The notes beneath the pieces are model-generated. The model was not told the DNA's origin. It ran no database searches and saw nothing but the letters and a program-made list of their open reading frames with translations. From contig CAZECW010000025.1 of NCBI GenBank assembly GCA_964510585.1, positions 4,737 through 36,736 on the forward strand: a stretch of 32,000 nt of DNA, in the 5' to 3' direction. Below, piece by piece: positions 104-28,416 of the stretch. Positions within the stretch are counted from its first letter, which is position 1. Every line of letters starts with the position of its first letter. Source of the stretch: an uncultured archaeon (GTDB taxonomy: Archaea > Asgardarchaeota > Jordiarchaeia > Jordiarchaeales > Jordiarchaeaceae). Position numbers and translations under genes: made by a program.

Positions 104-1837
104 GTGGATATGGTACCCAAGCATGAAGAATATGCGTTCAAAGTTGTTTGCATTGGGGATGGTGGTGTAGGCAAGACCAGCCTAATAGTAAGGCTAACCG
201 AGAATAGGTTCTCAGAAGACTACAAAATGACTTTAGGAACTTCTTTTGCCGCTCACACCATAAATATTGAGGATAAAATTGTGACTTTACAGATTTGGGA
301 TCTTGGAGGTCAGCCCTCCTTCAGTCACTTGAGGTCGTTTTTCTATGCTGGAGCTAAGGGGGCTGTGATTGTTTTTGACTTAACAGATATTAAATCTTTT
401 AAGAATGTTACAACATGGTATAAAGAGTTGCGTAGCGTTTGCGGTGATGTGCCGATTGTTTTGATCGGTAATAAGAATGATTTGGCTGGCAGCCGTGTTG
501 TTGCTAGGCAGGAGGCGGAGATGCTTGCTAGAAGCTTGGGCGCACCTTACATTGAGACTAGTGCTAAAACTGGTGACAAGGTTAATTTGGCTTTTCAAAG
601 TGTTTCAAGGCGCTTGTTGGGTATCGAAGAAAAGTTACCTATGGTAAAGGGTGTGGTGGTTCCAGATGTTAAGAGTAAGATTCTGCAGTTTATTGACAGT
701 CGAAGGGACTATCTCCTAAATTTGCTTGGAGATCTAATTTCCGCTCGCTCTGTTAATCCTCCAGGAAATGAGAAGGTCGCCGCGGATGTTGTTCAAGGCG
801 AGTTGTTTAGGATTGGAATGCAAACTGAATCTTACGAGAAGGAGAGTGGGCGGACCAACGTTGTGGGCTATGTGGAGAAGGGTAACTCTCCCACTTTAAT
901 GATTATTACACATCTGGATGTGGTGCCTGCAGGCGACGGATGGATTTATGATCCGTTTAAAGCTACTCCCACTAATGGTAGGATTGTGGGTAGGGGTGTT
1001 GTTGATGATAAGGGGCCTATGGCCTCTGTTCTTCTGGCTATTCAAGCGCTTAAGGAGTTTAATTTTCCCATTCGGGGACGCTTGTTGTTTGTGGCCGTGG
1101 CAGATGAGGAAACTGGAAATGAGCTGGGCATAAAGTATCTTTTGAACGAAAAGGGCTTAACCGCTGATTATGCTTTGGTGGCTGAGCAAACTAAGTGTGA
1201 AGCGGTGGAGATTGCGGAAAAGGGCCGTTTGTGGGCAAGGCTGAAGAGTACTGGTGCACAAGGTCACGGTAGTATGCCGGTGAAGGGTGCGAATGCAATT
1301 GTAAATCTCTCAAAAGTTTTGGCCCGCATAGAAAACCTGAAAATGTCCTACACTGAGCATCCTCTGCTTGGAGCTCCAACCATAAATGTAGGAACAATAA
1401 AGGGCGGAGTGGCTATTAATGTGATTCCTGCTTCCGCCGAGGCCACAGTGGATATTAGATATCTACCCTCTCAGGATTTGAGGCAGATAATTAACGAGTT
1501 GCGCGAATTAGTGAGGAGCGTCCAGAGGGAGAACCCTGGGCTAGAGGTGGCCATTGAGCCCATAGCTTCGGATCCCCCGACGGAAGTATCTCCGGAAGAT
1601 CCCGTTGTCAGAGCAATGGTGAGTGTAATAAGGGAAGTGACGGGAAGCCAGCCTAAGCTAATTGGGATAGGGGGCGCTACAGTGGCGAAGCACTGTATTT
1701 CTCACGGTATTCCCACAGCTGTTTTTGGACCAGGGGATCCTAAAGAGGCCCACGCCGCAAACGAGAGTGTGTCCATAGATAGTTTACTTAAGGCAGCTAA
1801 AATTTATGCTCTGACCATATTAAACCTGCTCTCTTAA
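104..1837 (+). CDS. Fusion of an N-terminal Rab-like small GTPase (about aa 9-172) and a C-terminal M20 metallohydrolase (ArgE/DapE-like)
   Basis: GTPase motifs G1 GDGGVGKT, G2 TLG, G3 WDLGGQ, G4 NKND and G5 SAK are present. M20 motifs THLDVVP, GRGVVDDKG, DEET, AEQT, GHGS and AHAANE are present. One uninterrupted 577-aa frame; start is GTG 104 or ATG 110. Confidence 0.88.
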   Translation: MDMVPKHEEYAFKVVCIGDGGVGKTSLIVRLTENRFSEDYKMTLGTSFAAHTINIEDKIVTLQIWDLGGQPSFSHLRSFFYAGAKGAVIVFDLTDIKSFKNVTTWYKELRSVCGDVPIVLIGNKNDLAGSRVVARQEAEMLARSLGAPYIETSAKTGDKVNLAFQSVSRRLLGIEEKLPMVKGVVVPDVKSKILQFIDSRRDYLLNLLGDLISARSVNPPGNEKVAADVVQGELFRIGMQTESYEKESGRTNVVGYVEKGNSPTLMIITHLDVVPAGDGWIYDPFKATPTNGRIVGRGVVDDKGPMASVLLAIQALKEFNFPIRGRLLFVAVADEETGNELGIKYLLNEKGLTADYALVAEQTKCEAVEIAEKGRLWARLKSTGAQGHGSMPVKGANAIVNLSKVLARIENLKMSYTEHPLLGAPTINVGTIKGGVAINVIPASAEATVDIRYLPSQDLRQIINELRELVRSVQRENPGLEVAIEPIASDPPTEVSPEDPVVRAMVSVIREVTGSQPKLIGIGGATVAKHCISHGIPTAVFGPGDPKEAHAANESVSIDSLLKAAKIYALTILNLLS

Positions 1838-7599: not shown

Positions 7600-8067
7600 G
7601 TGTTTGTTATGTTGGAGGATGTTGAGGAAATTAAAAAGTTGAAGGCTAAGTATTGCTATTATGTGGATGGGTATTATGAGGATTCGTCGTGTCTGGATTT
7701 GCTTTTGAGAGAAGTGTTTGCTGAGGATGCTTTTGTTGATTTTGGACCTTTTGGGAGTGCTAAGGGTCGGGAAGAGATAAGGAACTTCTATGTAAACGTG
7801 GTTTTTGGGGTGCTTTCTTTTAGTATGCATATGTTGCTTAACCCTCTGATAGAGATTAATGGTGAGAGTAGGGCTACGGGTAAGTGGTATTTTTTTGTTC
7901 CAAGTACTATGAGGGAGAACAATTTGGCCGGTTGGCTTGCGGGAATATATGATGATGAGTACGAGAAAAGGAATGGGAAGTGGTTTATAAAATCGCAGAG
8001 GGTTAAATGGTTCTTTGGCACCCCCTACGATAAGGGCTGGTCTAGAGAGAACATGATTCCTAAATAG
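7600..8067 (+). CDS. SnoaL-like / NTF2-like protein (LinA/BaiE/scytalone dehydratase-like fold)
   Basis: LEDVEEIKKLKAKYCYYVD, FAEDA, GREEI, MHMLLNP.IEING..ATGKWY and YDDEYEKRNGKWFIK. TTG start. Confidence 0.8.
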   Translation: MFVMLEDVEEIKKLKAKYCYYVDGYYEDSSCLDLLLREVFAEDAFVDFGPFGSAKGREEIRNFYVNVVFGVLSFSMHMLLNPLIEINGESRATGKWYFFVPSTMRENNLAGWLAGIYDDEYEKRNGKWFIKSQRVKWFFGTPYDKGWSRENMIPK

Positions 8068-8258
8068 GAAGCAATTTGACTCCTTCATAGTCGGTAACTC
8101 GGTCATTCAAAATTGGATGTTGTAGGGGTCCCACTTTAGTGGTGAGTGAATTTTTTGGGTCTAGATGATTTCGAGCCTCAGCCATAACTATTTATGGGTT
8201 GTGGAGCAAGTTGTATTAGTATCTCGTACCTGTTGGTAATTTGTTTTGGGGTGGTTTT

Positions 8259-9545
8259 GTGAAGGCTAGGGTTGTTGTTGAGGATGTTTCGGAAATTAGA
8301 GAGTCTTTGCTCCGGGTTTTTGATGCTTTTGGTGGTGTTGAGGAGTTTGTTAAGCCTGATTCTAAGGTTTTCATAAAGTATAATGGTGTCCACTTTGGTA
8401 GGGTGATGTATACTGATCCTAGGGTTATAGGTGAGATGGTTAGTATTGCTAGGGAATTTACTGTGGATAAGGTTTATGTGATGGAGAATTCTACTCAGGG
8501 CAATTTTACTCGTATGGTCGCTGAGGTTAGTGGTATTGCTCAAATTGTTGAGGAGAGGGGGGGTGAGAATCTGTACTTGGATGAGCAGAAGCCGGTTATG
8601 GTGGAGATGGGTGATGAGCGTATTCCTACTAAGTTTCCTGAGATTTTGTATGATAACCTTATTCGCAGGAAGGGTAGCAATGTTCTGATTAATATTCCCA
8701 AGCTTAAGACGCATTGGGAGACTACTGTTACGCTGGGCATTAAGTGTTTTCAGGGGCTTCTTTATGATTGCGATAAGCTTGTGAATCATAATTATAAGTT
8801 GCATCAGAAGCTTGTGGATACTGTAAAGTTTATTCGTCCGGATTTTACGATTATTGAGGGTATTACTGCCACCCGGTTTGGCCATTTTCCCCCCGAGACT
8901 TTGCTTTCGGAGTGTGTGGTTCCATTGAATATTTTTATTGCTTCGAATGATGTGGTTGCATGTGATACAGTGGGTGCGAAAATTCTGGGTTATGATGTTG
9001 AAGAGGTGAAACATATTAAGCTTGCCGCGGAGCAGGGACTAGGGATCGGTGACCTTAAAGATATTGAAATTATCGGTGACATTTCGCGTTTCAGAGAGCG
9101 TTTCCCATATACCCCCTGTAGGGACTGCCCCAGTGAGGTGCGCTTTATTAGGGGGAGGGAGATGGCCTGTGTGGAGGGCTGCTATGGAAACACATTATTG
9201 GCTCTCCTCTATTTCTGGTACGATTTTAAAGGTGAGGGCGGCTTTAACATTATTGCAGGTAAGGGTGTTAGTGAGGACGAACTGGACAACCTTCTGCCCG
9301 GGGACATTTTAATCGTTGGGCCTTGCACAATTGAAGAGAACTTGGACAGGATTCGTGAAAAGTATCCTGAACGCAAAATTTATACTATACCTGAATGTAA
9401 CGATATTGCCAAAATTACTGCGTATCTGTGTGCCATGATGAAAATTGATGTTCTTAGCATGATTCCAATGGACACGAATAAAACGCTCGAAATAATACAA
9501 CAGGCCCTGCAACATGGATTAGACGCAAATCTTCCCCTCCTCTAA
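8259..9545 (+). CDS. DUF362-domain protein with Cys-containing C-terminal extension (probable Fe-S protein)
   Basis: VFIKYN, ENST, INIPKLKTH..T.VTLGIKCFQG and NDVVACD motifs, plus a C-terminal CVEGCYG. Start is placed at GTG 8259 after GGGGTGG; the ORF track starts at 8241. Confidence 0.78.
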   Translation: MKARVVVEDVSEIRESLLRVFDAFGGVEEFVKPDSKVFIKYNGVHFGRVMYTDPRVIGEMVSIAREFTVDKVYVMENSTQGNFTRMVAEVSGIAQIVEERGGENLYLDEQKPVMVEMGDERIPTKFPEILYDNLIRRKGSNVLINIPKLKTHWETTVTLGIKCFQGLLYDCDKLVNHNYKLHQKLVDTVKFIRPDFTIIEGITATRFGHFPPETLLSECVVPLNIFIASNDVVACDTVGAKILGYDVEEVKHIKLAAEQGLGIGDLKDIEIIGDISRFRERFPYTPCRDCPSEVRFIRGREMACVEGCYGNTLLALLYFWYDFKGEGGFNIIAGKGVSEDELDNLLPGDILIVGPCTIEENLDRIREKYPERKIYTIPECNDIAKITAYLCAMMKIDVLSMIPMDTNKTLEIIQQALQHGLDANLPLL

Positions 9546-9734
9546 AAGCTCATCCTTATTGGGCGGCCCCTCCCCCCTTTGTGTTTTAATCCCCTTCTCC
9601 CTAGTTTCTCCCTTTTTATAAAGTATGATAAATGCTTAAATATGGAAAATAGATATGGTTAATTTAATTTGCACATGTATATAGAATTAGTGTTACACCC
9701 CTCTGAGATAAAGCTAGTTGAGGGTTGAGTTGGT

Positions 9735-10955
9735 ATGACAAAAATTTTCTTCACCAAAGAAGAATTACGTTTCAGAGAGGAAGTTCGGGAATTCGCAAGA
9801 AGAGAGATAGCTCCATATGCCGACGATGTTGAAAAAGGAATGTATCCAGGGCCGCTCCTGAAGAAAATTGCTGAGGCGGGATACATGAGACAGCTGCATC
9901 CAATTGAGTACGGTGGAACCAACAAGGGCTTGGTGTACGAGATGATTGTCGCCGAGGAGATTGCTGCAGTTAGTGCACCCACCGATATGTCGCGTACTGC
10001 TTCATCTACACTATGTGCGATTCCCATATCTCGATTCGGTACTGATGAACAGAAAAGAAAGTACCTGACACCTATAATAAGGGGAGAAATGATTGGGGCA
10101 ATAGGCATTACAGAGCCAGATGTGGGGTCTGATACTGCTGGCATGAAAACTCGCGCAATAAGAGATGGAGATGAGTATGTCATCAATGGTGAGAAGAGAT
10201 TTATAACGAATGGGGCGGATGCGGATATTATTACTCTATTTGCCATTTCGAATCCGGAAGTGCCAGCGAAGCGGGGCGCTAGTGCTTTTATTTTTCCAAC
10301 AGATACAGAAGGATTTAAGGTTGAGAAGGTTTACAACCTTCTGGGTATGCACGGTATGCGCATTGCACATTTGAAGTTTGAGAATTGCCGTATCCCCGCT
10401 GAAAATCTTCTTGGTAAGGAGGGTATGGGTTTTAATATCCTTATGGACGAGTTGGACACTGAGAGGATTTCTATTGCAGCAGAGATGATTGGAATTGCCC
10501 GGGCAGCATTTGAGATAGCCGTGAAATACTCCACCGAGCGTGTGCAGTTCAATAGGCCAATTAACTGGTTTGAGGGGGTAAGTTTTAAGATTGCTGATAT
10601 GGCTACCCAGCTAGATGCGGCGGAGCTTTTAACTCTACGTGCAGCACGGATGGTAAATCGTGGTGAAAATGCCAGCAAGGAATCAGCTATGGCTAAGGTG
10701 TTTGCAGTAGACCACGCCTTTGAAATTTGTAATCAGGCACTACAAATACTGGGCGGCATCGGGTACACAACCGAATACCCTGTTGAACGCTATTTAAGGG
10801 ATGTTAGGATTGGTATGATTGGCGGCGGGACGTCGGAAATAATGAGGTTTCTGATTCAGAGAGAGGTCTATAGGGAATTTGAGCAAAAGGCGGGAAAGGA
10901 GAAGCAAGCTATACCTGTTGAAGTTTCAAGCACTTCTGGCAGAGAGAACCCCTAA
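9735..10955 (+). CDS. Acyl-CoA dehydrogenase
   Basis: AIGITEPDVGSD, YVINGEKRFITNG, ERISIAA, RVQFNRPI, QILGGIGYT and GGGTSEIMR. Confidence 0.95.
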   Translation: MTKIFFTKEELRFREEVREFARREIAPYADDVEKGMYPGPLLKKIAEAGYMRQLHPIEYGGTNKGLVYEMIVAEEIAAVSAPTDMSRTASSTLCAIPISRFGTDEQKRKYLTPIIRGEMIGAIGITEPDVGSDTAGMKTRAIRDGDEYVINGEKRFITNGADADIITLFAISNPEVPAKRGASAFIFPTDTEGFKVEKVYNLLGMHGMRIAHLKFENCRIPAENLLGKEGMGFNILMDELDTERISIAAEMIGIARAAFEIAVKYSTERVQFNRPINWFEGVSFKIADMATQLDAAELLTLRAARMVNRGENASKESAMAKVFAVDHAFEICNQALQILGGIGYTTEYPVERYLRDVRIGMIGGGTSEIMRFLIQREVYREFEQKAGKEKQAIPVEVSSTSGRENP

Positions 10956-11370
10956 GGATTAATCCTCTAGTTAAACTTTTTTTGCTCCCTTCTTGACAGT
11001 ATCCCTAGGAGGATTTCTTGTTTCCTACGGTACTGGGAGCGGCTTCCACACCACTTTTCATATATGGAAGGAAAATCAGGAAATAGTAGCAAGTCTGACA
11101 CTGGCAAACGGCTCTTTTTTGGTTGGCGTTTCTTGGATGTCTGTTTTTAACAGGATTTTAAACCCGATATTTTTACTGGGGATATATACAAACTTTTAAT
11201 AAAACATTTAAATTATGGGGGATGACTGAATAAGTGGTATAATTTATGTTTCGCCTGCGTGAAAAGATATTAGAATTAGGTTTTGAGTAGTGTTTCAAAG
11301 TTGATTTGGATAGTTTGGAAAAATGGGTACCCTGAGAGCTGATTTAATGTTTTGCTGGAGTTGAACGTTT

Positions 11371-11877
11371 ATGGTTTTGCGAGAAAGCTTGAATAAATTG
11401 ACTCCGGAGAAGGAGATTGAGTTTCTTCGCGGAGCCTATTTTGGTGTGGATGGAGTTTGGTTTCTGGTTTGTGAGGATGAATATGATTTTGATGAGGCTC
11501 TTTACTTAGATGGTGAGGTTTGGAAACGTTTCGCTAAAATCCTGGCGAAGAGGGTGAAGAGATTATTTGATGTTGAGGGCGAGGATGCGGAAACTGTGGC
11601 TGACACCCTTGCTTTACGCTGGACTATGGAAAAATGGGAATTTGAGGTTTTAGAGTATAGTGCAAAGAGGAGTGTACTACGGGTTACAAGTTGTCCTTGG
11701 CTTGAGGGGTTAAAAAAGTCCAATAGGGAGAAATTTATACCTAAAATATGCGACCCAGTTTGCGAGATTGTTTATCACAGCTGGGCGGAAGCCATTAACC
11801 CAAAAATCGAGGTAGAGAAACCGAAAACGAGGGGAAAAGGAGACACGTATTGCGATTTCATATTTACTCTAAAGTAA
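11371..11877 (+). CDS. DUF6125 / ATC-hydrolase-like (V4R/HNOX-like fold) protein
   Basis: DGVWFL.CED.Y..DEAL.LD.EVW, CPW...C...C...WAEAINP...C.FIF pattern. Confidence 0.6.
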   Translation: MVLRESLNKLTPEKEIEFLRGAYFGVDGVWFLVCEDEYDFDEALYLDGEVWKRFAKILAKRVKRLFDVEGEDAETVADTLALRWTMEKWEFEVLEYSAKRSVLRVTSCPWLEGLKKSNREKFIPKICDPVCEIVYHSWAEAINPKIEVEKPKTRGKGDTYCDFIFTLK

Positions 11878-11956
11878 TAGTTTCAGGTTGGGGCAAAGAT
11901 AGGTTAAAGAAGAAATTGATATTTTATGCTACACCTTTCTTATGGTGGTGATGTAG

Positions 11957-12367
11957 ATGTCGCTTGGCGGCAAGATAAGAAACTTTCTGGGCGACGATCC
12001 TAAGAAGCTTGTTGATGAAATACTCAAGAGCATGAAAGAAGAGTATGGTGAAATTCCCTTTATTGCAAAATCTATGAGTAGTCAGAGACCAGAAGCATTT
12101 ATTTTCAATGCCCTACAAACCCTATTTATATTGAAAAGGCCTAAAGCAGTTCCTCAAAAAACAGCGGAGCTCTTAGCCATCGCAGCCGCTACCGCCATTG
12201 GATGCGAACACTGTATAGATTTTCATATAAGGGCCGCTATGCGCCTTGGAGTGTCCAAGGATGAAATATTTGACGCCATAATGGTTGCCGGCCTAATCTC
12301 TCAGACGTCAAAATTAGCCGTAGGCCTAAGAAAGCTGGAGAGGGCTTCCCTATCAGATTCACCTTAG
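11957..12367 (+). CDS. Carboxymuconolactone decarboxylase / AhpD-like protein with CxxC
   Basis: KTAELLAIAAATAIGCEHCIDFHIRAAMRLGVSKDEI. Its stop overlaps the convergent glpC stop by 4 nt. Confidence 0.85.
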   Translation: MSLGGKIRNFLGDDPKKLVDEILKSMKEEYGEIPFIAKSMSSQRPEAFIFNALQTLFILKRPKAVPQKTAELLAIAAATAIGCEHCIDFHIRAAMRLGVSKDEIFDAIMVAGLISQTSKLAVGLRKLERASLSDSP

Positions 12368-20671: not shown

Positions 20672-22114
20672 GTGGAGCTGACCTTTGTGTCATTTATTGA
20701 AGAGCCTCATCTTACTCGAAGTAGGCAAAGATTCAGACTTTTAGCTTCCAATTGTGATAAACTCATTAAATCGGTTCTTCAAGTGGTAAATAGCTACAAA
20801 GATGGTGGTTTGAACAGACAGGAATTTTTCAGGGATATTCGAGATCGCCAAAAAATAGATGTTGGTGTCTTAGACAAGGAATTTCTAGAAGAATTGGAGA
20901 ACAGTGCAGGTATTTTGTACATGCGGGGCGAGTACCGTCTTAATATGAACCGCTTATTAATGCTAATAAACATGTTTCTCAAAGAAATCGAGCGGGTTGA
21001 TAAAGATAGGGCTGATGAATTAAGAAAAAATGTTAATCAAATTAATCTCAAAATTGACACTCTTACCGGCGAGACCACTGAGGTTGCAAAGACCGCTAAA
21101 ACAAAGCTACCAGAATATGAGGAAATCGAAAAAGAAGAAATAATTCAAGAACCCGCTGTAGTGGGGGAAAAGGCGGGATTAGAACCTGTAGATAAAGCTC
21201 TCACCACCTATATTAAAGAGTATGACAAACTAAGCCTTGTACAGATATCCTCAGTTTTAGGCATATCTGAAAATGAAGTCAAGAAGAGATTAAGTTACCT
21301 GTTAGAACAGGGGATTCTAGTCGGCAAAATACAAGATGAGTATTTCCTAAGAGAAGCAGTAAGTGTGATACCAACCCCATCAGAATTAGTAAAAGCAGAA
21401 GCTGTCACAGAGGTAACAAAAATCACTAAAGAGGCAGTTACACCGACACAAGAAGTAACCGTGAAACCGCCTGCGATAAAAAGTATTGAGACGCCTATGG
21501 TTGAAGAAGCCATCGCTAAAAAACCAGTTCTTAAAGAGCTCGAGGTTGAGAAGCCAGAGGTAATAAAAACCACTGTTGAGGAGCCTGTAGTTGAAGAGCC
21601 CGTAGTTGAGGAGCCTGTAGTTGAAGAGCCCGTAGTTGTTGAACGTATCGAAAGTGTGGTCACTAAGGAGGCCGTTGTTGAGACGCCTATGGTTGAGACT
21701 GCAGAGGTGGCGCCGCCTGAAGAGGTGACTTATACCCCTAAAGAGATCAAGGAGATTTACAAGAGGATGAAGATTTTTATTGAGATGGTTTCCCAAGTTC
21801 TTGAAATGGTTGTAGTTCCCGATAAGCCTGGATTTGATAGGAAGGCTCTGTACAAGTTGATTTATGATTACTACTTCCTTCCCATCGATGGGTCTTTTGA
21901 TGTGGAACCATTTAAGGAGCTAGCCAAAGAGGGAGTAGTTCGCGTGGAGGAAAACTGGATTAGAATTGACTTGGGCAAATCCCTTTCACTTTTCAAAAAC
22001 AAGTACCTTCCCGGGATTAGGAAGGTTAAAAAGAGAACCGCGTCTAAGCTGGAAAAAGCTTTAGACGAAAACATAGAGCAAATGATAAATAATCTCCTAA
22101 AGACTAGTGCTTAG
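20672..22114 (+). CDS. Hypothetical protein with central PCI-type winged helix, Glu/Pro/Val/Thr-rich linker and possibly homologous N- and C-terminal domains
   Basis: YDKLSLVQISSVLGISENEVKKRLSYLLEQGILVGKI (about aa 174-226) matches the PCI winged-helix pattern; VEEPV repeats. GTG start. Confidence 0.6.
   Translation: MELTFVSFIEEPHLTRSRQRFRLLASNCDKLIKSVLQVVNSYKDGGLNRQEFFRDIRDRQKIDVGVLDKEFLEELENSAGILYMRGEYRLNMNRLLMLINMFLKEIERVDKDRADELRKNVNQINLKIDTLTGETTEVAKTAKTKLPEYEEIEKEEIIQEPAVVGEKAGLEPVDKALTTYIKEYDKLSLVQISSVLGISENEVKKRLSYLLEQGILVGKIQDEYFLREAVSVIPTPSELVKAEAVTEVTKITKEAVTPTQEVTVKPPAIKSIETPMVEEAIAKKPVLKELEVEKPEVIKTTVEEPVVEEPVVEEPVVEEPVVVERIESVVTKEAVVETPMVETAEVAPPEEVTYTPKEIKEIYKRMKIFIEMVSQVLEMVVVPDKPGFDRKALYKLIYDYYFLPIDGSFDVEPFKELAKEGVVRVEENWIRIDLGKSLSLFKNKYLPGIRKVKKRTASKLEKALDENIEQMINNLLKTSA
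21575..21637 (+). repeat. In-frame tandem repeat: two perfect 30-bp copies (four 15-bp subunits) encoding (VEEPV)4
   Basis: GTTGAGGAGCCTGTAGTTGAAGAGCCCGTA at 21575-21604 and 21605-21634. It is flanked by a 19-bp direct repeat TTGAGACGCCTATGGTTGA at 21486-21504 and 21678-21696. Confidence 0.95.
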
Positions 22115-22256: not shown

Positions 22257-22544
22257 TTAGATGTTCTTGCAGTAGCCTATTATTTCAAAGTCTTCTTCGT
22301 CGAATTCGTTGGCAGTCCATTCTTCTATTTCTTTTATCATTTCTTTTATTTTTTCTGGCGGTCCGTAAATTGTATCCTTTGTTACGTTAAGTCTGTATTT
22401 TGACTTTGCGCAATCTTCTATGGCTAATTTTAGGAATTTTTCAGCTTTGTCTTCGGATATACGAAACTTTTCAGCTAATCCCGGAATTATCTGCCTCTTT
22501 TTTTCCACAAGTTCGACAGAAGAAACGTTCTCGCTCATTTCCAT
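22257..22544 (-). CDS. Small hypothetical protein (95 aa, charged, acidic C-terminus)
   Basis: Protein-like composition; fills the gap directly downstream of the TIGR00300 gene on the same strand. No family recognised. Confidence 0.7.
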   Translation of the reverse strand: MEMSENVSSVELVEKKRQIIPGLAEKFRISEDKAEKFLKLAIEDCAKSKYRLNVTKDTIYGPPEKIKEMIKEIEEWTANEFDEEDFEIIGYCKNI

Positions 22545-23842: not shown

Positions 23843-24477
23843 TATTTATTCCTCTTTTAGGTTGGTACAGGCCTTCCTAGGTAAATTGATGCGGTTTTTG
23901 GGTGTTTGTTTGTTCTGTTTTTTATAACTCATATTTTGGTGTCTTGGGTGTGCAATAAGAATTGTATATTATAATATTTTTGGAGTTATTTTTGGCACTG
24001 CTAAACCCGGTTTACCTTCTGTGTGTATTATAGTTTTGTCTTCTTCTGCTCTTTTTTGGTTTAAACCAAGCTCATATCCATTCTTTAAAACTTAGGGTTT
24101 CCTGTTTCAAACGATACTTTTCAAAACTTCTTCAATTCGTATGTGGAGGCTTATGTTGGGTTACCTCTGCTTGGTTCTTTTGAAAAATTATTGTAGTAAG
24201 TTTTTGTGGCTTTTATATATGATTTTACAATAATTATGGTGAAACTTTAGGGCAATTTAAGTATCTTGAAAAAGTGGATGATGAAAATATGCAGGATATT
24301 TTGGGAAAAATGTCTAGGTCTAATTTGCATCCTTTTCTGTGCCTTATCCTTCTATTACAAATTAAGTTTGTCTTGTTTAAGGTTGGTCAGCTGACCTTGA
24401 GCACCAGTTTTGTGAATCTTTCTCACTCCATTAACTCAGAATCATTTGTCCTGCCTTTTCTCATATTTTTTGGTGCA

Positions 24478-27348
24478 GTGTTTTTTGATGGAAAAAAGGT
24501 GCCTTTTTCTCGTTATCTCCTAACGCAGGATAAAATTAGATTACTTAGGGGAAAAAATGTCTTATCAGAGGAGACTGTTTTCCAATTACTTCCCCCTTCT
24601 GAAAAGGATGGATTTAACTCTCCCTTGTGCCAAAATTTTTTGGTTCCAGATGTAGAGCTAGATGAGCAACTGGAGTATGCGTACGAGATAAATGTTAGGG
24701 GGGAAACAATTTCTCCTTGCCTTTACATTTTTTCAAAGCAACCAATCATTGAAGAAGATTTAGATGAAAAAGTTCAATCTGTTCTGTCAACCTTTAACCT
24801 AGGCGCCGATTATACTAGAATGCGTTTCGAGATATTGGAAGAAGAGTTTTTGGGTTTGATAGGAGGAGCTTATTTCACTGCGATTCGAAAGGTTAAGGGT
24901 GAAAAAAATATTTTAATTCTGGACGCGGATGGAAACCCAACTTACATTGCTGTGCTTACTTTGAAGGGTGCCCCAAATTGTGAATCACTAGATCCACAGT
25001 GCTTAGATCTTTTCTTGAAATCTATTGAAAACTTGGATACAAATTTAAATCTCGTAATTCCTTTTCGATTTTTAAAAAGAAGGAAATCTGAACAGACTTA
25101 TAAGAACTTAAAAACAAGTGTTCGGGTTAAAAGTAAAACTCCAATTAAATACTGTGAAGCCTCTCCCTACATAGTTGTGAGGGGCGCCTCTCTAGAGAGC
25201 ATTAAAAATCACATGAAGAGAGTGCACGCCGCCGCCAGTGCTGCATGGTCCGGAGTTAGGGAAAGAATTAATGTAGAGTTCTTGGACTGTAGCATAATTA
25301 AAAAATTCCTACACAACATAATTTGTAGGCGACTCCTTCCAGATAAAGATGTCTTTTTCATAAAAAATTTAAGTATTTATTTGAAAGTTCCCACTTCAAC
25401 TAACGAGAAAAAGTTAAACTTTCCAATTGCCAATGAAAATCTGAAGGGCAATATTTCTAACAGCGATAAAATCCTATTGGGCGAAACTGCTTTGAGTGGA
25501 CGCACAGTATCCGTTTGGATGGATTATGAAAATTTGTTACACTACGTGGTCATTTTTGGCGAATCCTACGAAAAATCTTTTTTTATAATGAGCTTCCTCA
25601 AAAAAATTAAGAAGCCTTGGATAGTTTTCGATTTTAAGGGCGATCTCTCAAAGTTGAAGGATCTGTTTAATGATTCAATTTCATTTTTCAGTCTTAATTC
25701 TGGGTCTGAGCAACTTAAAATAAACCTCTTTGATCCTAAAGATAAATCGCCGGAGGAACACGCCTCATTCCTAATTAGTATTTTCAAAAAATTTTTTGAA
25801 AACAAATTGGAAAATATGCAGGAGCCACTTCACAGAATTCTGAGTCACTTCAGTAATGTGTTGAGATGTGAACATGGTCTCAGAGAGTTCGACAACGCCT
25901 TTAATGAAGTACTAAAAATTAATGATTCTAAAAAGCAGACCATCATAAGAGAACTTACACTCTTGCTCCACAATCTTCAGCAAGGTGTCCTAAGTAATGT
26001 TTTCAGCAGTAGCCACTCTAACATAGGCACAGAAATAGCTGATAAGCGTGTAATCATCGATTTAAATCATCCATACTCTGAAACAGATGCGACTGGCATA
26101 AAATTTCTCACAACCTATATTCTAGAAATATTATCTCGTGGTTCGTCTGAGATAGTAAATGGCTTAAAGCACGTAACGGTAATAAACTGCCCCGAAAACG
26201 GTTCAGAACTGATTAATTTTTTAACCAAGAAAGTTTTAGATAAATCCACTTTGCTAAAAAAAGGTGAGGGTCTAATTCTATCTGCCACCCATCCTCAAGA
26301 CTTTAAAAGCATCTATAGTTTGGATTCATGTTATACAATTATTTTTGGCGGTCTAAGAGAACCTAGAAGAGGTTCTGAAATAATAGGTGGGATAAATCCA
26401 GAAGAAATAGAGAATCTCGGCGGGAAAGCTTTAATGATAATTCCGGGAACAGGAAACAAAATAAAATTTGAACCTATTTGGGATAAAAACCTAATTAAAA
26501 AAGAAGCGACAATTCCTGCGCTTAAAGTTGAACCTATCGATAACCGTTTCAAAGCACCGGCCACTTTGGAAATGGAAGAGGCTAGTGACAAACTTGAGTT
26601 GAAACATCAGCCCCTCCCAGTAAAGAATACCTTCGTGACCGCCGATCAATTTCTCAGAGGAGTCCGTAACTCGAAAATTTCATTCGAACCCCCATATAAT
26701 TTAAGTAGTGAGCAGGTCGCAGTCCTCATAAATCAGGTTTTAGCCATTCTTGATAGTGAAATATACTTAACAGATCTTTTTATATCAAAAATAATAGGAA
26801 TACCCCCCAAGACTGTAAACAAAATTATGCGTGAAGTCTTAAATACAGATTCGGAAATTCAAAGAATATATGTTCCCGTAGTTGGAAGCAAAACCAATAT
26901 TCCTCTGTACTACTCCAAATTCGGACCCAAATACGAAAATGTGCAGGACAAGTATTTGAAGGATATACTAGAGGAGATGTGCTTTAAAAACGGCATCAAT
27001 TTCTCGCTAAAAAGAGATACCGAAACCGGAGCAGATGGTAAAATTGAATCCTACACTTTTAAACTGTTTGTTCATATACCTAACGATGATGAGCTAAAAA
27101 GCACATTTCAAAAATTATTTTTGAAGTTTAACAGAGTTGCAGTTTTGTTCCTCCACGAAAAAGATCTTGAAAAGGCCGAGAAGCTGAACAGTCAATGGAA
27201 AATACCTATACTTATGGGTAGCCTAATCAATCTTAACACATTTCTCACAGAAATAGTGGAGTCCTCTACCGAAAAAACATCCAACCCATCCTACACTCCA
27301 GAGAGAGATTTACAAGAGTTAATATCCTGGCTTCGAACCGAAACTTAA
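24478..27348 (+). CDS. Large VirB4/HerA(FtsK)-like protein with degenerate Walker motifs and C-terminal wHTH plus PD-(D/E)XK-like region
   Basis: ILLGET..GRTVSVWMDYENLLHYVVIFGESYEKS (Walker A position), WIVFDFKGD, LKINLFDP, RVIIDL, HVTVINCPE (Walker B position) and GEGLILSATHP. Start is placed at GTG 24478 after a GGTG SD-like site; the ORF track starts at 24274. Confidence 0.6.
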   Translation: MFFDGKKVPFSRYLLTQDKIRLLRGKNVLSEETVFQLLPPSEKDGFNSPLCQNFLVPDVELDEQLEYAYEINVRGETISPCLYIFSKQPIIEEDLDEKVQSVLSTFNLGADYTRMRFEILEEEFLGLIGGAYFTAIRKVKGEKNILILDADGNPTYIAVLTLKGAPNCESLDPQCLDLFLKSIENLDTNLNLVIPFRFLKRRKSEQTYKNLKTSVRVKSKTPIKYCEASPYIVVRGASLESIKNHMKRVHAAASAAWSGVRERINVEFLDCSIIKKFLHNIICRRLLPDKDVFFIKNLSIYLKVPTSTNEKKLNFPIANENLKGNISNSDKILLGETALSGRTVSVWMDYENLLHYVVIFGESYEKSFFIMSFLKKIKKPWIVFDFKGDLSKLKDLFNDSISFFSLNSGSEQLKINLFDPKDKSPEEHASFLISIFKKFFENKLENMQEPLHRILSHFSNVLRCEHGLREFDNAFNEVLKINDSKKQTIIRELTLLLHNLQQGVLSNVFSSSHSNIGTEIADKRVIIDLNHPYSETDATGIKFLTTYILEILSRGSSEIVNGLKHVTVINCPENGSELINFLTKKVLDKSTLLKKGEGLILSATHPQDFKSIYSLDSCYTIIFGGLREPRRGSEIIGGINPEEIENLGGKALMIIPGTGNKIKFEPIWDKNLIKKEATIPALKVEPIDNRFKAPATLEMEEASDKLELKHQPLPVKNTFVTADQFLRGVRNSKISFEPPYNLSSEQVAVLINQVLAILDSEIYLTDLFISKIIGIPPKTVNKIMREVLNTDSEIQRIYVPVVGSKTNIPLYYSKFGPKYENVQDKYLKDILEEMCFKNGINFSLKRDTETGADGKIESYTFKLFVHIPNDDELKSTFQKLFLKFNRVAVLFLHEKDLEKAEKLNSQWKIPILMGSLINLNTFLTEIVESSTEKTSNPSYTPERDLQELISWLRTET

Positions 27349-27672: not shown

Positions 27673-28416
27673 TTGGATGCCGCGATGGGTGACAAATTTG
27701 ATGAAGCTTTTTCGGAGCTGGTTGCGGGGGTGGAGGCGCACGGTAGTAAGGAGTATAAGATTGCCTCACAGCACTTTAAGAGGGCTGCGGAACTTTTTAA
27801 ACAGTTAAGGGAAGAGGAACTAGATGAACAACTTCAGACCACTGCTGCGGGAAACTTTTATCAGGCCCGCGCTAATTATCATCAGTCTATTGCGGATTAT
27901 CTGAACTTTAAAATGCAAGATTATGAATCTGCTGCAAATAGTTACAATAACGCTGTTGCTGACAAAAAAATCGCTATAAATATTGTGAAGGATTTACTAA
28001 AAGAAGGGTGGATTAAAGACCAAAAACTTCCCTTGGAACTGGAGGCAGAACTAAACGGACTTGAAGCGGCAAGGTTTGAGTGTTTAGCCCAAACTGCGAT
28101 CATAAATAAAAATCTAGAGAAGGCAGCGGATCATTTCCGAGAGGCTTACGAAGCTTACGAGAATAAAGAAAAAATCGAAGAAGCTCTGAAGAATACATAC
28201 GAAGAAAAACTGGCTAGAGCTGACAAGATTAAGTGTGAGGGCTTGTACCACGAGTGCTTGGGTATCTACTACCTTGAAAAAGGTAAGAAGAAGCAAGCTA
28301 AAGGACTATTAATCAAGGCTAAAGAAAGATACGAAGAAGCAGTAAACCTGAATCCAGAATTTCAGGTTTTAAGCAAAGCCCTTGAAAGAGTAAACCATAT
28401 ACTTCTTAAACTCTAA
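27673..28416 (+). CDS. TPR-like / alpha-SNAP-like helical repeat protein
   Basis: Repeated YKIASQHFKRAAELF, YESAANSYNNA, LEKAADHFREAYEAY and AKERYEEAVNLNP helices. Start is TTG 27673 or ATG 27685. Confidence 0.62.
   Translation: MDAAMGDKFDEAFSELVAGVEAHGSKEYKIASQHFKRAAELFKQLREEELDEQLQTTAAGNFYQARANYHQSIADYLNFKMQDYESAANSYNNAVADKKIAINIVKDLLKEGWIKDQKLPLELEAELNGLEAARFECLAQTAIINKNLEKAADHFREAYEAYENKEKIEEALKNTYEEKLARADKIKCEGLYHECLGIYYLEKGKKKQAKGLLIKAKERYEEAVNLNPEFQVLSKALERVNHILLKL

Follow-up and report, generated by a model that had tools for sequence, protein, structure and literature searches.

What does a protein do that has the build of a ring ATPase and no longer has the residues of one? The question is raised by an intact chromosomal gene on the forward strand of the window analysed here, a stretch of 32,000 nucleotides from the genome of an uncultured Asgard archaeon of the Jordarchaeia. 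We find that the gene product, called the target below, belongs to the FtsK-HerA superfamily and is a two-domain, VirB4-like protein with a membrane anchor, in which the ATP site has been dismantled. Dead paralogues of ring ATPases are often informative about the construction or regulation of a machine, and Asgard archaea are widely considered the closest relatives of eukaryotes. The same genome encodes an active paralogue, with which the target is compared throughout.

Loss of the ATP site

The motifs were compared in an alignment of 72 sequences, 48 of which are active relatives. In 48 of 48 active relatives GxxGxGK[ST] and hhhh[DE][DE] stand at exactly the positions at which the target family is degenerate, so that the degeneracy is genuine and does not come from misalignment. 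At the P-loop the target family follows the pattern FG[EDN]Sxx-K[TSNIA], the residue after the lysine being T or S in most members, and G424, S426 and K429 are invariant among the 16 members that a word-indexed search recovered (see below). The Walker B site is VIN[CS]PEN in the target family, as compared with VVVDDA-type sequences in the active proteins. A further change is a deletion that takes away the counterpart of R682 of the active paralogue, an arginine that is invariant among 30 active relatives. In the sister family of the same order the P-loop (for example AKHKSS-IV) has the same one-residue gap and no lysine, and the Walker B site reads IAPSS or IASPP. The catalytic motifs had been called lost from the target sequence itself, and the alignment to the 48 active relatives bears this out; GESYEKS, HVTVINCPE and ADGKIESY (27031-27054) all lie where they had been placed.

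Other landmarks of the core have been kept. DFKGE and INLFDP..PEEHA are present in the target family and common to the active proteins, although INLFDP has been lost in the sister family. The target also contains LILSATHPQ (with the "ATH" motif), PWIVFDFKGD, KINLFDP, GEGLIL and HYVVIFGE.

The solved ring ATPases of the superfamily have their ATP site at the boundary between subunits; one face of it carries the P-loop, and the opposite face an arginine that acts in trans. Since the P-loop and the arginine segment are both gone from the target, both faces of such an interface site have been lost, which argues against a composite active site, or a catalytic interface, shared with an active partner, and not against stacking or docking.

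Fold and family membership

Scans of the target protein against Pfam, NCBIfam, PADLOC and the PDB sequences gave zero matches, for Pfam and NCBIfam up to an E value of 1 and with the curated VirB4 families included. The word-indexed protein search returned 16 homologues of 50-88% identity, all annotated "hypothetical"; the organisms named among them are only Freyarchaeota, Jordarchaeaceae/Jordarchaeum and Lokiarchaeia, and more than 100 alignment columns are invariant among the 16. A profile search of the same collection with the family alignment found almost no further relatives. With phmmer, about 30 further remote relatives were found among 1.8 billion representatives. Those matching the centre of the target are DUF87/HerA-central-domain proteins (E 1e-17 to 1e-4) with an intact Walker A GxxGxGK[ST]. 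Among those looked up, ten have an organism name, and these names are of Ranarchaeia, Helarchaeota, Odinarchaeota, Korarchaeota and Jordarchaeales; the pairwise comparison of the target with a Korarchaeota DUF87 protein gave an E value of 1e-19. Those matching the C-terminal 200 residues likewise have no Walker A, and the two named ones belong to Jordarchaeales and Freyarchaeota.

The fold was taken from an AlphaFold model. A first model, built from the 16 close homologues, reached a predicted local distance difference test (pLDDT) score of 35 and was discarded; a second one, built from the 72-sequence alignment with its active relatives, reached 76 with confident domains and was used. With this model the first match in Foldseek was full-length TrwK/VirB4 of R388, at an E value of 2e-20 over about 800 aligned columns, followed at lower rank by HerA (E 1e-11) and by the VirB4 C-terminal domain alone (E 5e-9). 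Alignment with full-length TrwK placed 538-591 residues, from 58 to 746 of the model and from 1 to 796 of the chain, at a root-mean-square deviation of 12-13 Å that reflects a different orientation of the domains. The neighbours in the ESM Atlas are VirB4/TraE-type clusters covering residues from about 6 to 745. The sequence-only reading had named a structure search as a check on its P-loop fold and had placed a VirB4-like region before that fold, and both proposals are upheld by these alignments.

By the features of the FtsK-HerA superfamily, the target has the RecA-like/ASCE core fold of HerA/VirB4/TrwB type and detectable sequence homology, and it lacks Walker A, Walker B and the arginine invariant in active relatives. 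As a VirB4 protein it has the two-domain architecture, without the company of type IV secretion system (T4SS) genes and without a match to a curated VirB4 family.

C-terminal module

Beyond the two VirB4-like domains and a linker the target carries a tail of its own. In the model its first domain consists of helices 807-821, 829-836 and 840-851 and strands 857-863 and 870-876, a three-helix bundle with a beta-hairpin wing, and the winged-helix-like segment earlier suspected at 26737-26841 falls inside it. Residues 879-995 follow the order alpha-beta-beta-beta-alpha-beta-alpha-beta-alpha by DSSP, with pLDDT above 90, and this order fits the PD-(D/E)XK core; both families of the order keep E895, D916 and K925. 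In the Atlas this last domain, taken by itself, has as its language-model neighbours PDDEXK_3, PDDEXK_11, AHJR-like and RE_CfrBI clusters, at 0.80-0.84, and these amount to no more than leads. Scanned as a profile against Pfam and PDB, the C-terminal 220 residues gave matches at chance level only (FANCM pseudonuclease, E 0.13; Phage_rep_org_N, E 0.12; Naa10, E 0.047). Of the nuclease-like remnant that had been proposed here, the ADGKI stretch is present, and the PD-(D/E)XK identity of the last domain is a weak lead from the Atlas neighbours and the conserved columns. Comparison of the C-terminal 220 residues with the C-terminal region of the active paralogue by hhalign found no similarity (probability 3%). 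The conserved helix DLQELISWL at the end of the protein may be a docking element.

Active paralogue

The search for an active paralogue that the sequence-only reading had suggested found one on another contig of the genome (C51, 10011-12947, minus strand). It encodes a stand-alone, membrane-anchored, VirB4-like protein of 978 residues with matches to the family profile (E 2e-30) and to DUF87 (E 6e-11), Walker A GTVGSGKT, Walker B VVVDDA, an N-terminal transmembrane helix and a winged-helix-like tail. The two proteins are alike in their membrane anchor, N-domain, DxKGE and INLFDP core motifs and winged-helix-like tail. The active paralogue differs from the target in its intact Walker motifs, in its invariant arginine, in having its motor as the most constrained part (below) and in a tail without detectable similarity. 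Relatives of the active paralogue are present in 306 of 400 Asgard genomes (E <=1e-10), about three quarters of those sampled. Its own neighbours are genes for ABCE1, FBPase, GAPDH, PGK and UbiA, and across 13 Asgard loci no conserved neighbour was found beyond the phosphoglycerate kinase gene within the order. Our search of the literature for an Asgard VirB4- or HerA-like membrane ATPase found no relevant paper. The target thus draws attention to its active parent family, for which chromosome segregation, DNA exchange and secretion are candidate roles.

The layout of the active paralogue recalls that of FtsK. The genome contains seven further DUF87/HerA-type matches above the Pfam cut-off, on contigs C130, C137, C118, C195, C187, C114 and C122; three are frames of 515-519 residues and one, on C187, is a frame of 1016 residues with Walker A GHRGSGKS. 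None of the seven resembles the target family profile (E >0.001). In another Asgard genome (G002, C1:107657-109237; locus L064:8306-11200) an active VirB4-like homologue is broken by one in-frame TGA into open reading frames of 656 and 303 residues.

Distribution, origin and selection

A profile of the last 220 residues was searched against 400 Asgard genomes. It matched one order only: all six genomes of the window's family, including the window's own (E about 1e-130), and four of the five sister-family genomes (E about 1e-15), with no match in the 389 other sampled genomes. The target defines an unannotated, order-specific Asgard protein family. In all 10 matching genomes the gene is single-copy without an internal stop, and it is full-length (798-1048 residues) in the nine in which it is not cut by a contig end. 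In the loci examined the gene lies next to one and the same pair of ArgZ-like and FGGY genes; the sister-family gene adjoins this pair divergently and is thus a positional orthologue. The two degenerate groups come together in a single clade of a maximum-likelihood tree, with a Shimodaira-Hasegawa-like approximate likelihood ratio test (SH-aLRT) value of 99. This single clade and the neighbours of the sister-family gene, together with the P-loop deletion common to both families, point to a single ancient inactivation, and indicate that the dead copy arose once, in the ancestor of the order (Jordarchaeales, also called Freyarchaeia), as a paralogue of the active Asgard ATPase.

Selection was estimated as the ratio of nonsynonymous to synonymous substitution rates (dN/dS) by the Nei-Gojobori method for pairs of genomes. 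Between the window and an 88%-identical orthologue the ratio is 0.24 for the whole gene, 0.33 for the ATPase-like domain and 0.13 for the C-terminal 229 residues; in a second close pair the corresponding values are 0.25, 0.32 and 0.12, and in two more distant pairs the ATPase-like domain gives 0.21 and 0.27. The C-terminal range of 0.11-0.13 is the lowest of the gene. In the active paralogue the order is reversed, with 0.06-0.13 for the ATPase and 0.16-0.43 for the C-terminus (four pairs within the window's genus, one of whose genomes is apparently that of the 88%-identical orthologue). Constraint on the ATPase-like domain of the target is thus relaxed 2-4 fold relative to the active protein. 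The dead copy has also diverged further: between the window's genome and the one complete genome of the genus its identity is 52%, as against 71% for the active copy, and between the families about 18-21% as against 42-44%.

The whole-gene ratio of 0.24 speaks for purifying selection and not for the neutral decay that had been kept in view as an alternative. Judged by these ratios, the gene is not decaying, and constraint has moved from the motor to the tail. Lost catalytic residues, purifying selection, retention across the lineage and the presence of an active paralogue are together the features of a pseudoenzyme, although the loss of activity is one that we infer from the sequence. The pair constitutes a natural experiment, in which the same VirB4-like chassis is found with and without a motor in one genome and selection has shifted to a putatively DNA-binding, nuclease-like tail.

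Possible role and alternatives

The best explanation as a whole, and one that we consider reasonably probable, is that the target acts without enzymatic activity, as a scaffold in the membrane that carries a DNA-binding module. The dead VirB4-like protein would no longer be a motor, to judge from its motifs, and would instead be tethered to the membrane as a scaffold, probably in oligomeric form. The part that does the work would be the C-terminal module, where the model suggests a winged helix, putatively DNA-binding, and a PD-(D/E)XK-like domain; its task would be to hold DNA at the membrane or to process it there. Any energy required would be supplied by another protein.

Several points weigh against this explanation. 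The structural searches are dominated by the P-loop domain, and residues 879-995 are effectively beyond their reach. In the same domain the (D/E)xK motif lacks its acid, and T, S or P occupies the position two before the lysine. Because of long branches in the tree, the clade of active proteins from which the dead copy split is not locatable. Finally, K429 is invariant in the window's family, so that residual non-canonical binding of nucleotide or phosphate is possible.

The main alternative, which we regard as doubtful, is that the target is a regulatory or structural subunit of the active paralogue, forming mixed or stacked rings with it and tuning the motor or adding a DNA-binding tail. Every genome with a dead copy also matches an active one, and the membrane anchor, the N-domain, DFKGE and INLFDP are common to both proteins. 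There is also a precedent in RvhB4-II, a degenerate protein found alongside RvhB4-I in Rickettsiales, for which something of this kind has been proposed (PMC4676284). The co-occurrence is little telling, however, as the active gene is found almost throughout the Asgard archaea. With its P-loop and its arginine segment both lost, the dead copy would be unable to bind ATP or to provide an active neighbour with an arginine. The two genes are unlinked (contigs C25 and C51), the identity of their domains is only about 17-18%, and the sister family lacks even INLFDP. A complex prediction for the ATPase-like domain of the target with the ATPase domain of the active paralogue gave a score of 0.00 without controls, and counts neither way.

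A broader proposal, which we offer as speculation and think unlikely, is that Asgard archaea possess a T4SS-independent, membrane-anchored, VirB4-like DNA translocase whose tail is a winged helix, either a functional analogue of FtsK or a motor of DNA uptake or exchange, and that the Jordarchaeales duplicate is an ATP-independent, membrane-tethered DNA receptor or nuclease working with it. If this were true, the two proteins would make up a two-component membrane DNA-handling system with no described archaeal counterpart.

The conservation of the P-loop remnant also raises the idea of a non-canonical NTPase or nucleotide sensor, in which the shortened P-loop would bind nucleotide or phosphate as a switch. 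It accounts for the fact that G424, S426 and K429 are invariant, with a following residue that is mostly T or S, among 16 members that are only 50-88% identical. The sister orthologues keep the gene and yet have lost the lysine and all other P-loop residues, and nucleotide sensing through K429 therefore cannot be general. Neither family retains the Walker B acids or the arginine segment, and the 2-4 fold weaker constraint on the ATPase-like domain is likewise at odds with such a switch. We consider this possibility quite unlikely.

The fold resembles that of conjugative VirB4 proteins, and HerA-type ATPases often scaffold nucleases in defence systems, as the titles of PDB entries show. The target could in principle be a dominant-negative anti-conjugation factor, as the sequence-only reading had suggested, or a defence factor, in either case derived from the VirB4 of a mobile element. 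This is very improbable. There is no PADLOC match, and the gene is single-copy, syntenic and vertically inherited, with a core place among housekeeping genes in genomes that are 50% divergent. The window contains no integrase, relaxase or T4SS gene, in agreement with what had been said of the surroundings, and in the 96%-complete genome neither TrbL/VirB6 gave a match nor FtsK_SpoIIIE a match above the cut-off. Domestication from a conjugative element, which had also been proposed, is not supported, as the active relatives are themselves stand-alone chromosomal genes in those 306 Asgard genomes without conserved T4SS neighbours. Since they occur across the Asgard archaea without conserved neighbours, and since TrbL/VirB6 was not matched and FtsK not above the cut-off, an origin from a mobile element or a T4SS is not indicated.

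That the target is a decaying pseudogene or an annotation artefact, as the want of Pfam, NCBIfam and PDB sequence matches and the uniformly hypothetical source annotations might suggest, is refuted by the intact frames in 10 genomes (full-length in nine), by dN/dS of 0.11-0.33 by domain, by the more than 100 invariant columns and by the confident domain models, and its probability is negligible.

Comparison with known systems

A close parallel is RvhB4-II of Rickettsiales, a VirB4 paralogue that lacks ATPase active sites, shows strict conservation and has a higher rate of evolution than RvhB4-I (PMC4676284). Like the target, it is full-length, has lost its active sites, is conserved in its lineage, is faster-evolving and is encoded apart from its active paralogue (PMC4676284). 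Unlike the target, it is part of a recognisable rvh T4SS with duplicated VirB8 and VirB9 partners (PMC4676284); here no T4SS component was found, either in the window or, for TrbL/VirB6, in the genome. The target for its part belongs to an archaeal host and has the additional C-terminal winged helix and nuclease-like domain.

TrwK/VirB4 of R388 (7o42, 7o43, 8rtd) and the Thermoanaerobacter VirB4 C-terminal domain (4ag5/4ag6) are 11-14% identical to the target, which differs from TrwK/VirB4 in having no Pfam VirB4 match, lost motifs, no T4SS context, fused N-terminal helices and a C-terminal module. Alignments with HerA (Sulfolobus 4d2i) begin at about residue 90-130 of its chain, past the N-terminal barrel, and no NurA-like gene stands beside the target (adjacent genes only were inspected; no genome-wide search for NurA was made). 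In the HerA-effector defence complexes (SIR2-HerA, DUF4297-HerA) and the DndH/DptH C-domain (7es4) we see a further comparison, from which the target differs in that its effector-like domain is fused and its ATPase is dead. With FtsK/SpoIIIE (anchor, linker, motor and gamma winged helix) the likeness is in layout only; they belong to a different clade of the superfamily, and the motor of the target is inactive.

Gene model and genomic context

The open reading frame list and the translation place the target in a single uninterrupted frame (24274..27348, plus strand), as had been reported. The start, however, had been put at GTG 24478, giving about 950 residues, and this is too far downstream by about 63 codons. 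Upstream of it the frame is open to a conserved methionine, after which hydrophobic helices come, in five of the five orthologues examined, and this, with a TATA-like box and two hydrophobic helices, moves the start to one of two ATG codons and the length to 1012-1019 residues (Table 1). A start at 24478 would cut off the two-helix membrane anchor. The AlphaFold model puts the N-terminal helices at 13-35 and 51-65, and a Kyte-Doolittle scan shows that transmembrane-like helices also open the active relatives. A scan of the window for promoters and terminators of bacterial type was uninformative, the host being an archaeon.

Table 1. Coordinates of the target gene, its features and the gene that follows it (positions in the window; residue numbers from the start at 24289).
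Feature	Position	Strand	Basis or remarks
Archaeal TATA-like box, TTTATATA	24210..24217	+	About 70-90 nucleotides 5' of both candidate ATGs; read from the sequence, putative function
Full coding sequence, 1019 residues	24289..27348 (stop included)	+	ATG 24289; alternative ATG 24310 (1012 residues); the collection's gene model begins at 24289
N-terminal membrane anchor, two hydrophobic helices (residues 11-37, 48-66)	24319..24486	+	Kyte-Doolittle scan
VirB4-like N-terminal domain (residues 73-385)	24505..25443	+	TrwK alignment, ESM Atlas clusters, homology to the N-domain of active relatives
Degenerate RecA-like/P-loop domain, FtsK-HerA-VirB4 type (residues 391-739)	25459..26505	+	
Degenerate Walker A, GESYEKS	25558..25578	+	Alignment with 48 active relatives; one residue short, two glycines lost, lysine kept
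INLFDP motif, kept	25720..25737	+	Common to active relatives; N486 and F488 invariant in the active family
Degenerate Walker B, HVTVINCPE	26170..26196	+	Alignment; both acids replaced (D/E-D/E -> N-C/S); H628, T630, I632 and N633 invariant in the family
Deletion of about 13 residues removing the ED...R segment	26245..26271	+	Alignment; lost arginine is R682 of the active paralogue
Variable, probably disordered linker (residues 740-801)	26506..26691	+	pLDDT <50; dN/dS up to 0.59; columns poorly conserved
Winged helix-turn-helix domain (residues 806-878)	26704..26922	+	
Alpha/beta domain, PD-(D/E)XK-like topology (residues 879-995)	26923..27273	+	DSSP order, conserved columns, Atlas leads
Conserved C-terminal helix, DLQELISWL	27298..27342	+	E1010, I1012, S1013, W1014 and L1015 invariant
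Helical-repeat (TPR-like) gene, soluble protein of 243 residues, co-directional	27685..28416	+	Next gene in five of five loci of the window's family; TPR_2, E 1.2e-6

The housekeeping genes around the target in the window encode an M24 peptidase, an ArgZ-like protein, an FGGY kinase, a CoA-binding protein, a radical SAM enzyme and aminoacyl-tRNA synthetases, and the window also holds gelsolin, PCI-domain and Ras-like GTPase genes. Scans of the window for tRNA genes and Rfam families found nothing. The TPR-like gene downstream, which may form one functional unit with the target, is not a neighbour of the target orthologue in the sister family. At the only sister-family locus with an annotated flank (L026), a type IA topoisomerase gene (7720-9783, minus strand; Topoisom_bac, E 6e-120) follows the dead VirB4-like gene (9888-12263) by about 100 bp on the same strand.

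Other genes of the window may be noted briefly. The protein of 480 residues encoded at 20672-22114 (plus strand) has a borderline PCI match (E 1.4e-4; 22.4 bits, the cut-off being 22), and in related genomes syntenic genes of 423-496 residues, without a recorded Pfam match, stand in its place. After this PCI-like gene, at 22257-22544 (minus strand), lies an open reading frame of about 93-95 residues without a Pfam match, and a gene is called at the same place in four of four orthologous loci. The frame at 104-1837 (plus strand) joins a Ras/Rab-like GTPase to an M20 peptidase in a single fusion protein (Ras, E 1.6e-51; Peptidase_M20, E 7.5e-35).

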